From Parachlamydiales bacterium (GTDB taxonomy: Bacteria; Chlamydiota; Chlamydiia; Chlamydiales; Parachlamydiaceae): DNA of 64,000 bases. The stretch covers positions 1 to 64,000 of the forward strand of contig JAGVJP010000011.1 of assembly GCA_020051075.1 (NCBI GenBank), in the 5' to 3' direction. This document shows, in pieces, positions 54,001 through 57,000 of this stretch (position 1 is its first letter; each line of letters starts with the position of its first letter). Position numbers: made by a program.

Positions 54001-57000
54001 GTCGTCGAAGGCGACACGAACGAGGAAGTTCTCTCCTATGTTCAATATAATGCGCAGCAGATCTTGAAACAGATGAGGGTTCTCATTGAAAAGGCTTTGC
54101 GGGCAGGGAGGCTGACCCAAGCTGAATCTGCTAAAGTCCAGCGAAAATTTAAGGAATCGCTTGAAAGTTATACCTATTTAACTGTTTAACACTCCGATTT
54201 AAAAGAAGGTGAAGCAAGATGACAACGATTAAAAATTTCATGAAGAAGCATTTCAAACATTTCAATGCAGCCGTTTGTGTCGATGCCGCTGAAGGGTGGA
54301 TCAGACACTTGGACAAAGGAGGCAAAATGCTTGTCACTCTGGCAGGAGCGATGAGCACGGCTGAACTGGGGATATCCCTGGCTGAGATGATCAGGCAAGA
54401 TAAGGTCCATGCCATCTCCTGTACAGGAGCTAACCTGGAAGAAGATATCTTCAATTTAGTGGCCCACACCCACTACGAGAGAGTCCCACACTATCGTTAT
54501 CTCACTGCTGAAGATGAAGTCAACCTCCTCAAGAAAGGGATGAACCGGGTCACAGATACCTGCATCCCTGAAGATACAGCAATCCGACGGATTGAACAAG
54601 AGGTCTTAGAGCTTTGGCAAGCTGCTGATCGAGCTCAGAAGCGCTATTTTCCCTATGAATATATGTATCAACTACTCGATAGTGGACTCCTCGACAGGTT
54701 CTGTGAAATCGACCCCAAAAACAGCTGGCTGCTGGCTGCTAAAGAGAAAAACCTCCCTATTGTCACACCAGGATGGGAAGACTCGACCTTAGGAAATATT
54801 TTCGTGTCCCACGTTATCGCTGGAGACATCAGCACCTATAACATCATGAAATCAGGTCCTGAGCAGATGGCTGTTTTAGTCGACTGGTACAAAGCGCTCA
54901 GCTCTCACCATTCCATCGGGTTTTTCCAAATTGGAGGGGGCATCGCTGGGGATTTCCCGATCTGTGTCGTCCCTCTGATCAGGCAAGACCTGCAAGAGAA
55001 AGTCCCTTTATGGGGATACTTCTGCCAAGTCAGCGACAGCACAACTTCATTCGGGTCGTATAGCGGCGCTGTCCCGAATGAAAAGATCACCTGGGGAAAG
55101 TTGGATGCCACGACGCCGAGCTATGTCATCGAATCAGATGCGTCGATTGTCGCCCCCCTCATCTTCGCTTATGTCACAGGATGACGCAACAGGATAAGCA
55201 AACAAACAGGGATAGGCAGAATAAACAAAAAAACAGGATAGGCAGGATCGCAAGCGGCAGGATGGGCAGGATAAAAAAAGATGAGAATAAGATAGAATAG
55301 GAAAAAAAATATTTCAAAATTTTGAATCATAAAAGGCTTGATCGGGGTGATGAAGCCTTTTATATTCTAATTTTCTATTTCCAAAATTAATCAACAACCC
55401 AACTAATAAACCTGAGGTTTTCAGATAATTGATTAATTGAGCTTGATGGGCGCCAATTAATGATTCGCAGCATTTCAATTCGACAATGATCATGTTTTCA
55501 ATAATAAGATCTGCCACATATACCCCAACACGTTGACCTCTAAATATAACCTCAAATCTCCTTTCCAGTTCAATCTTGAGACCTTTTTCTTCAATTGCCA
55601 TGAAAAGCGCCTGTTTATAAACCGCTTCTAAAAATCCAGATCCAAGTTCATTCATCACTTCAAAACAACACCCTAAAATCGTTTCGGTTATCGCAGAATA
55701 CATGTTCAAATTCATATGATCTTGCATATTTTTACTCTCTTTTCCTTAAGTTTATGACATTTTACATAAACATCACAATTAATCAAGTAAAAATAAATAA
55801 AACACAGAACTTTAATTTATAACATAATGATAATCAAGAAGATACATTTTATCCTATCTTATCCTGCCTATCCTGCCGCGAAGCGATCCTGCCTATCCTG
55901 TTTTTTTTGCTTATCCTGCTTATCCTGTTTTGTTATCCTGTCTATCTTTGTTGAGGTCGCAGGAAGTAGAGGGGAATGCCGAGGACGAGGGCGCTAGAGC
56001 CCCAAAGGAGCTGGTGGCCTGTTGCATGAGTGAGGAGCCAGCCAATGCCGATGAGCGCAGCGATAGGGATCACAATAGTAAGGGAGCGCCTTAAACCATT
56101 GTGGTTTGCTCCAATCTGTTTGCGAAGTACAATGACCGCTAAACAAGTTGAGATGTATTGGACAAATCGGGCGACAACACTGACGACAGCTAACTGAGAG
56201 AAGCTACCTGAGAGCGCGAACAGCCCTGTGAAACTGACGGTGATGATGATAGCCCAGATGGGTGTGCCAAAGCGCCCTTTAGAGGCGATCCATTTCGGGA
56301 CCATGCCATCTTCCGCTAAAGCGACGCCACTGCGCGGCGTGATGAATGAAGAGGCGATGTTGATGCCTCCAATGGAAATCAGCATCGCTGCTGCCACAAT
56401 CCATTTAGCAGAGTCACCCAGAAATTTGTTTGCTGCGTCAGTAAGCGGGGCAGAGCTATCAGCCAGCGACTCCCCTAGCAATGCCATTGCAGTAAATTGG
56501 ATGAAGAAATAAAGAATCGAGCAGAGGCTGATCACTGTCATCACTGCTATCGGCAGATTTCTCTGCGGATTTTTCATTTCTCCAGCAGCGATCACTAAAC
56601 ATTCAAATCCTCCAAAAGCATAAAATATCAATAGAGCCGCCCCGCCAAACGCTGTCGATTCGAAGCTATGTTGGATGGGAGATAGGACGAAACTTTCTTG
56701 GGCGTAGAAGAGTCCAATCAGAATGAAAACCATTAATGAAAGAACTTTTGCAACAGTGACAACATTATTCAGGAATTTCAGCCCTTTAAGTCCGACGATA
56801 TTAAGTAACCCCAACAAACCGACGAGGCTGAGAATCACCAGAGAGCGGTACGGCTCATTCATCACTTCGGGCCAGACGGAGCTCAAGGCCGTGACAAAAC
56901 CAACGACAACAGCAGCCCAGGCAAAAATCCCTACCGCCCAACGCATCAATCCGATTTCGAATCCGATGAAATTGCCAAAAGCCTCTTTAGCATAGATATA

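Follow-up and report, generated by a model that had tools for sequence, protein, structure and literature searches.

In the window analysed here, a 64-kb stretch of a Parachlamydiales contig, a small gene for a predicted nuclease of the GxxExxY family lies between two inverted arms composed of CAGGAT words, and sequence comparison indicates that the arm word tracks the protein tree across phyla. We lean, if only just, towards regarding this cassette as a transient, selfish, horizontally moving element whose protein would recognise its own word, nick or resect the DNA there, and seed REPIN-like hairpins.

The cassette and its predicted nuclease

The initial annotation had placed the genome's sole GxxExxY gene between inverted CAGGAT arms, and this is borne out. 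The gene at 55314–55727 is the only match above cut-off in the genome (TIGR04256, 132.7 bits against a cut-off of 35; PF13366, 132.3 bits against 22, E 1e-38), and the arms cover 55176–55309 and 55850–55946. The features of the locus, together with the gene-less CAGGAT hairpins detected by word search in the window, are as follows:

26562..26857, no strand: gene-less CAGGAT hairpin with outer AGGGAC-type arms
34459..34655, no strand: gene-less CAGGAT hairpin
42741..42999, no strand: gene-less CAGGAT hairpin
54219..55184, plus strand: left host gene, deoxyhypusine/homospermidine synthase-like (profile and orthologue comparison)
55176..55309, plus strand: left arm, CAGGAT words spaced ~9 nt and 25–27 nt, inner modules degenerate
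55314..55727, minus strand: GxxExxY/PDDEXK_3 gene, 137 aa (TIGR04256 and PF13366 profiles)
55728..55849, minus strand: AT-rich leader of the GxxExxY gene (sequence reading)
55850..55946, minus strand: right arm, inverted CAGGAT words with core variant CGCTTCGCG
55942..57219, minus strand: right host gene, APC amino-acid permease, convergent (profile)

The cassette (~770 bp) occupies the entire stop-to-stop gap between the two convergent host genes. By direct reading, the stop codon of the left host gene (55182–55184) lies inside the first CAGGAT word of the left arm, and its product ends in YVTG*, the orthologues ending in YVL[G/N/E/D]x(x)*; the permease stop codon (55942–55944) lies inside the outermost word-like unit of the right arm. 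The core of the left arm, GGATCGCAAGCGGCAGGAT, is located at ~55245–55263, and the core variants differ between the two arms (CGCAAGCG on the left, CGCTTCGCG on the right). The N-terminal MQD of the GxxExxY protein is encoded by the word-like ATGCAAGAT, and a promoter search of the leader returned a single weak sigma70-like match (55786–55759), not above chance. The window contains 17 CARGAT-N3-CARGAT pairs, where 0.08 would be expected. The previously reported inverted-repeat score of the gene, 104, was reproduced; a score of at least 42 is reached by 14 of the 2270 genes in the genome, among which this gene ranks third; a 49-aa ORF leads with 127, followed by a four-helix-bundle gene with 113. 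When folded, the whole cassette pairs arm with arm and leaves the gene in the loop (z −9.7).

The residues E34, D73, E83, K85, Q97, and Y101 are intact in the 137-aa protein; the first four are invariant across 97 sequences, with Q97 and Y101 almost invariant. The structure model (pLDDT 93) matches Cas4 SSO0001 (4IC1) in Foldseek at E 7e-5 and in VIA at Z 8.1, with an rmsd of 4.5 over 104 aligned residues and a TM-score of only ~0.5, the best VIA rows being tied with restriction-enzyme-like folds; lambda exonuclease and RecB-type nuclease domains are further structural matches. As modelled, the protein has an intact Cas4/lambda-exonuclease-like fold and is a predicted PD-(D/E)XK nuclease. The gene is under purifying selection, with a median dN/dS of 0.075 over 10 pairs; synonymous sites are near saturation already between closer relatives. 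Stop codons interrupt 11 of 174 homologue cores.

The family is large, with 14,393 representatives of 50%-identity clusters matching at E ≤0.001, and the available excerpt of one survey lists the function of PF13366 as unknown (PMC3424549). Searches with the protein returned no match among PDB sequences, in PADLOC, or among phage sequences, and none outside PF13366 in the ESM Atlas, while eight plasmid records were matched. Two-domain proteins of 240–300 aa, usually with one domain retaining D...ExK, number 27 among those listed; P0002, P0004, P0012, and 24 others, of ~260 aa, typically combine one catalytic and one degenerate domain. These sequences hint at a pseudo-dimeric action. By its best named homologues, the present genome groups with environmental Chlamydiota.

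Arm words across GxxExxY and four-helix-bundle loci

The polarity reported earlier for homologous loci was recovered in 80 loci chosen by similarity to the query, of which 75 had both flanks: 61 of the 75 carry CAGGAT upstream and ATCCTG downstream, and five show the reverse polarity. An inverted-repeat score of at least 36 was reached in 61 of the 75 loci. For this tally, the control windows gave 7 and 0 of 132. A broader set of 174 distinct loci was compiled from homologue-search hits, four phylum samples, and selected paralogues, with partial, duplicate, and short-flank loci removed. Here, 122 of 174 loci score at least 36 versus 0 of 204 control windows, and the word labels are forward in 138 and reverse in 22. 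On a quick-search tree (107 columns, midpoint-rooted), the word labels require 47 changes versus 97.8 when shuffled, with 0 of 200 shuffles as low, a match to which co-inheritance by itself contributes some clustering of word with clade. This tree separates all 35 loci whose words end in AG, on one side, from 66 of the 67 CAGGAT loci, on the other, the CAGGAT loci spanning Chlamydiota, Chloroflexota, Acidobacteriota, Armatimonadota, Verrucomicrobiota, Nitrospinota, Geobacteraceae, and Betaproteobacteria. The earlier proposal that arms are a property of the family, with a motif that follows the protein clade, is thus upheld, and the word is kept across many phyla at ~45–55% protein identity.

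Within single genomes (G167, G169, and G173), paralogues carry different words, so the word is no property of the host. Loci L104 and L106 (genomes G014 and G006) contain close GxxExxY variants (59–62% identity) with AACGAT arms instead of CAGGAT, a recent word switch that makes them well suited to mapping specificity. The reading frame terminates via a reverse word in 27 of the 67 CAGGAT loci. Alignment columns 25, 39, 43, 68–71, 93–95, and 117–119 differ between word classes; they were rejected as specificity residues because the difference is confounded with clade. Since word arms stand beside the gene, each clade obtains a predicted substrate, which makes the PF13366 family directly testable.

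Six word families are present in this genome (CAGGAT, ATGGAC, CACAGAG, AGGGAC, CGCAAAG, and GGGCAC), together with one GxxExxY gene and two four-helix-bundle genes. The four-helix-bundle gene with an arm score of 113 (TIGR02436; C93:41842–42204) has near-perfect arms. These inverted arms, of ~62 nt (whole unit C93:41749–42345), consist of CCCGAG/GTGCCC words, and the same words are dispersed in the genome, mostly as solo arms. Fifteen of 23 tested four-helix-bundle loci score at least 44 (31 matches were listed), and their words, GTGCCC, ATGGAC, AGGGAC, GGCGAA, and CAGAAT, pair by eye with protein subgroups. Four-helix-bundle proteins are not known to have nuclease activity. As their genes show the same arms and word-clade pairing, a nuclease does not follow from arms and a fitting word alone; a clade-specific word in the arms speaks for its recognition by the protein encoded between them, but does not of itself point to cutting. 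The available excerpt of PMC10053308 relates four-helix-bundle proteins by homology to Avd, the accessory protein of DGRs, and to IVS proteins. A wider and more tentative proposal, to which we give clearly less than even weight, is that two unrelated families of tiny proteins, Cas4-like GxxExxY nucleases and Avd-like four-helix bundles, form a class of transposase-free selfish hairpin cassettes, in which each protein would read a private 6–7-letter word arrayed once per helical turn and drive the copying of any hairpin with that word into gene ends. If true, many intergenic word repeats of bacteria that so far lack an explanation would be accounted for, and thousands of naturally re-specified, 130-aa DNA-recognising nucleases would become available, each with its target written beside it.

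Several further elements of these word families were observed. A gene-less AGGGAC-word hairpin lies at 59637–59870 of the window, and AGGGAC flanks a four-helix-bundle subgroup in relatives (L262 and L264). ATGGAC hairpins form 36 arm pairs genome-wide and, unlike CAGGAT, favour divergent gaps (20 of 46); no gene matching this family was found in the genome, and the CACAGAG and CGCAAAG hairpins likewise have no matching genes here. The 49-aa ORF with the top arm score is acidic and lies within CGCAAAG arms (C18:10650–10930). Nested hairpins occur at C88, L268, L275, and L278; the one at C88:7662–8029 has CGCAAAG outside and CAGGAT and CACAGAG inside, and its inner composite recurs on contigs C6 and C79 at 93–94% identity. 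Targeting of hairpins by hairpins was rejected, as word families do not co-occur per gap above chance and the C88-type nest is a composite copied whole. A gene-less CACAGAG-type hairpin (C110:8157–8357) lies upstream of a gene here; in G116 (L111), a CACAGAG-clade GxxExxY gene, one arm, and a hairpin lie in the same place, upstream of the same gene.

Mobility, gene-less hairpins and their spread

The 73 cassette loci of Chlamydiota adjoin 75 different neighbour genes, as matched to the genes of this genome, and a genome may hold up to seven GxxExxY paralogues. The neighbours of L004, L011, L022, L043, and L124 are adjacent here, with gaps of 23, 26, 12, 59, and 23 bp, respectively; an arm fragment from another family lies in the 59-bp gap. 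One and the same junction holds L004 (CAGGAT) in one genome and L124 (CACAGAG), of a second clade, in another. As neighbours differ and orthologous junctions are empty, the cassette is very probably mobile. For the present site, seven of eight orthologues of the left host gene have no cassette behind them (a CAGGAT arm alone in one of the seven), and the contig of the eighth stops before. A close empty allele, of the kind that a free-standing homing endonuclease would convert after cleavage, was not found; one water metagenome contains a ~95%-alike strain with the left junction occupied and a gene piece 87% alike, and no empty allele.

CAGGAT-N3-CAGGAT occurs 363 times in the genome (reversed control, 2). 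There are 95 core-paired elements, including the cassette, and 84 solo cores, with a median element length of 219 bp. The cassette alone bears the gene, and one of 115 arm pairs encloses a small gene. At C30:10562–11777, CAGGAT arms stand 1.1 kb apart with an unrelated 300-aa ORF between them. The hairpins are intergenic, with 2 of 363 word pairs deep inside genes, and are enriched in convergent-gene gaps, which hold 39 of 93 elements compared with 156 of 913 gaps of at least 150 bp. Element ends that face a stop codon lie at a median distance of 22 nt (n = 123; 20 overlap the stop, nine at exactly the first word), and those facing a start codon at 107 nt (n = 65); genes end in the word in 25 of 158 cases beside elements versus 34 of 2149 elsewhere. 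The rarity of word pairs in genes, the convergent-gap enrichment, and the purifying selection on the gene would suit a domesticated host system in which nuclease and hairpins are kept by benefit (terminators, mRNA stability, or defence), as argued for RAYT/REPIN. We regard domestication as improbable: the gene is patchy (45 of 150 Chlamydiota genomes) with many fragments and stops, no conserved neighbour or PADLOC match was found, and selection against harmful insertions gives the same placement bias.

In one genome, L030/L033 comprise three >99% identical units of 538–563 bp, with IS-like flanks in common beyond the arms that we take to be the end of an IS5 transposase. This near-identical set counts against autonomy of the cassette and, together with the CAGGAT+CACAGAG composites copied at 93–94% identity here, speaks for MITEs moved by a DDE transposase, the gene hitch-hiking in an IS. 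We find this scarcely probable for the hairpins, whose ends are ragged word arrays without fixed terminal repeats. No loop among the 95 reaches 0.9 identity to another, and the longest shared flank word of 94 elements equals the shuffled null, in a test with boundaries set at the outermost words that a 2–3 nt duplication could escape. At L030, L033, and L017, the cassette is inserted at the end of an IS-like transposase gene, presumably IS5-like from its translation, and has multiplied together with it.

The hairpin loops form asymmetric subfamilies of 17, 14, 9, and 6, which shows that entire hairpins were copied. Within an element, the arms have been homogenised: the two main core variants are concordant in 69 of 82 arm pairs versus ~45 expected (hand-worked from tabulated counts), in 25 of 94 elements an arm is matched best by its own partner, and mirrored segments of 12–22 nt private to the two arms of one element occur in four cases in the genome. 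These four segments are intergenic on both sides, which does not support an origin as copies of host coding DNA. An inside-out CAGGAT subtype, ATCCTGTCAATTTTACAGGAT, forms tandem arrays of ~90-bp period on contigs C1, C31, C72, and C17, also within hairpin loops.

In the mechanism we propose, the protein would bind its own word array and nick or resect there, the end set free would find its priming site in the partner arm or in word-like sequence where genes end, after which the unit would be copied by host repair. The gene may enter a lineage, seed hairpins from gene-less master copies, and often be lost, with hairpins outlasting it. Such nicking or resection and repair would explain the tandem arrays, the arm homogenisation, and the lack of target duplication. 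That the predicted nuclease itself catalyses the spread is about an even chance. If it does, a second chemistry, beside HUH, produces REP-like repeats, and repeats that rewrite protein C-termini would be accounted for.

The arm-to-arm fold with the gene in its loop, the homology of four-helix-bundle proteins to Avd and IVS proteins (available excerpt of PMC10053308), and the placement at transcribed 3' ends would also fit an RNA-level element like the 23S rRNA IVS, in which the arm stem makes transcripts tolerate the insert, the word is bound by the protein in RNA, and an RNA intermediate is copied by a reverse transcriptase in trans. This is distinctly unlikely, as the closest solved fold relatives are DNA nucleases, the cassette has no Rfam match, and arm homogenisation and tandem arrays require DNA-level events.

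Gene-less hairpins had been described as this cassette without its gene. Their origin by deletion is directly evidenced elsewhere: L001 contains, beside an intact gene, three tandem units composed of left arm, ~70–90 nt of gene start, the last codons, and right arm; L126 has similar internally deleted tandem copies, and L104 and L009 likewise by eye. Gene sequence is repeated nearby in 9 of 174 loci. The hairpins thus probably derive from cassette-type ancestors. The present copy, however, is kin of the hairpins and not a demonstrated template, because their loops in this genome hold no gene remnants (blastn, tblastn, protein profile, and DNA profile), the similarity of its inner flanks to any loop stays within the shuffled null, and it belongs among the discordant core pairs. 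As marks of former cassette sites, the hairpins show no clear excess: 2 of ~12 distinct 3'-facing neighbours of CAGGAT cassettes carry one here against a 10% background.

Among the 150 Chlamydiota genomes, which were drawn automatically (one further genome unscored) and include non-independent kin, at least five CAGGAT pairs occur in 12 of 44 other gene-positive versus 0 of 105 gene-negative genomes, and at least five CACAGAG pairs in 22 of 44 versus 4 of 105. This match holds for the GxxExxY family and not for the clade. The CAGGAT-clade gene or a fragment was detected in five of the 12 rich genomes (G136 and G132 by the tree; G129, G109, and G115) and not in the other seven (60, 58, 46, 16, 12, 9, and 5 hits), which include the three richest and one single-contig genome. 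In three rich genomes without the clade gene, 20 hairpin regions are uniform and hold no gene remnants. Transience of the gene, cross-action between clades, or copying of the hairpins by another factor would account for this. In E. coli, REP counts do not follow the RAYT gene, by the available excerpt of PMC3333891.

Hairpin bursts without a gene of the matching clade, the recurrence of this architecture in an unrelated second gene family, and six word families beside one GxxExxY and two four-helix-bundle genes would be expected if it were the word-array hairpin that moves, by way of host replication/repair or an unlinked factor, with the enclosed genes as cargo and the word kept by linkage only. 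We judge this unlikely, though it deserves weight. A 6-letter word constant across phyla at ~50% protein identity, with synonymous sites near saturation, is hard to obtain by linkage alone; CAGGAT bursts occur only in gene-positive genomes (0 of 105 gene-negative); and a small gene in 1 of 115 arm pairs, with an unrelated 300-aa ORF in one other, means that the cargo is not random.

Comparison with known systems

In REP/REPIN-RAYT systems, as the available excerpts describe them (PMC3116915; bioRxiv 10.1101/2021.07.10.451892; PMC3733652; PMC3333891), a small nuclease gene is likewise flanked by repeats, and inverted doublets with a variable spacer are dispersed with an intergenic, 3'-end, and convergent bias, provide stop codons with their termini, form tandem clusters, and remain in strains lacking the gene. 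However, the RAYT enzyme is HUH/Y1, whereas the cassette gene is PF13366, PD-(D/E)XK; RAYT genes are single-copy, vertically inherited, and immobile in the same excerpts, whereas the GxxExxY gene is mobile, multi-copy, and crosses phyla; and the cassette arms are 9-nt-period word arrays without the GTAG/CGTC tag of REPs. Extragenic inverted doublets with conserved arms, variable spacer, and gene 3'-end bias were found; a HUH/Y1 gene flanked by the repeats and a single-copy gene at a fixed site were not. The two PF01797 genes of this genome have no CAGGAT arms in the flanks read. A second, distant Y1 transposase-like, possibly RAYT-like, gene (C99:983–1213) shows no obvious repeats in the flanks read. 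The analogy to REPINs and RAYTs drawn in the initial annotation thus holds for the doublet layout and 3' bias, and is weakened by the 7 of 12 rich relatives without the clade gene, by the arms of four-helix-bundle genes, and by the mobility of the gene.

ORF-bearing 23S rRNA IVSs with an S23p/four-helix-bundle gene resemble the cassette in their end-formed stem with a small ORF in the loop and in being selfish and horizontally acquired (available excerpts of PMC4990558; PMC10053308), and four-helix-bundle genes of this family have the same arms. In contrast to an IVS, the cassette lies between two protein genes and not in rRNA, encodes a predicted nuclease, and has many gene-less copies. The heptamer repeats of Xanthomonas/Nostoc (PMC4692102) and the TAACTGA repeats of Beggiatoaceae (PMC4679880) are likewise intergenic tandem-word arrays, often in inverted pairs, with no known means of spreading in the available excerpts; unlike the cassette, their words are 7-mers, and no associated nuclease or four-helix-bundle gene is named in those excerpts. 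No description of the gene-arm link was found in the full-text literature, a search in which subscription papers were mostly outside and which the supplements of large repeat surveys, where the link could stand, did not enter.

The fold and the E-D-ExK-QxxxY layout are shared with Cas4 (SSO0001, 4IC1), lambda exonuclease, and RecB-type domains; unlike Cas4, the GxxExxY protein is a minimal 137-aa domain (TM-score ~0.5) outside any CRISPR context. MITEs and IS elements, including a MITE proposed from a PD-(D/E)XK_2 (YhgA) element (available excerpt of PMC4853749), similarly combine an autonomous gene with short inverted-end derivatives, whereas the cassette belongs to another Pfam family, PF13366, and has no direct repeat or fixed terminal repeat; target-site duplication and near-identical copies with fixed ends, as in DDE elements, were not found. 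In its working the cassette resembles REPIN-RAYT and in its architecture an ORF-bearing IVS, yet it does not pass the defining tests of either, nor those of MITEs.
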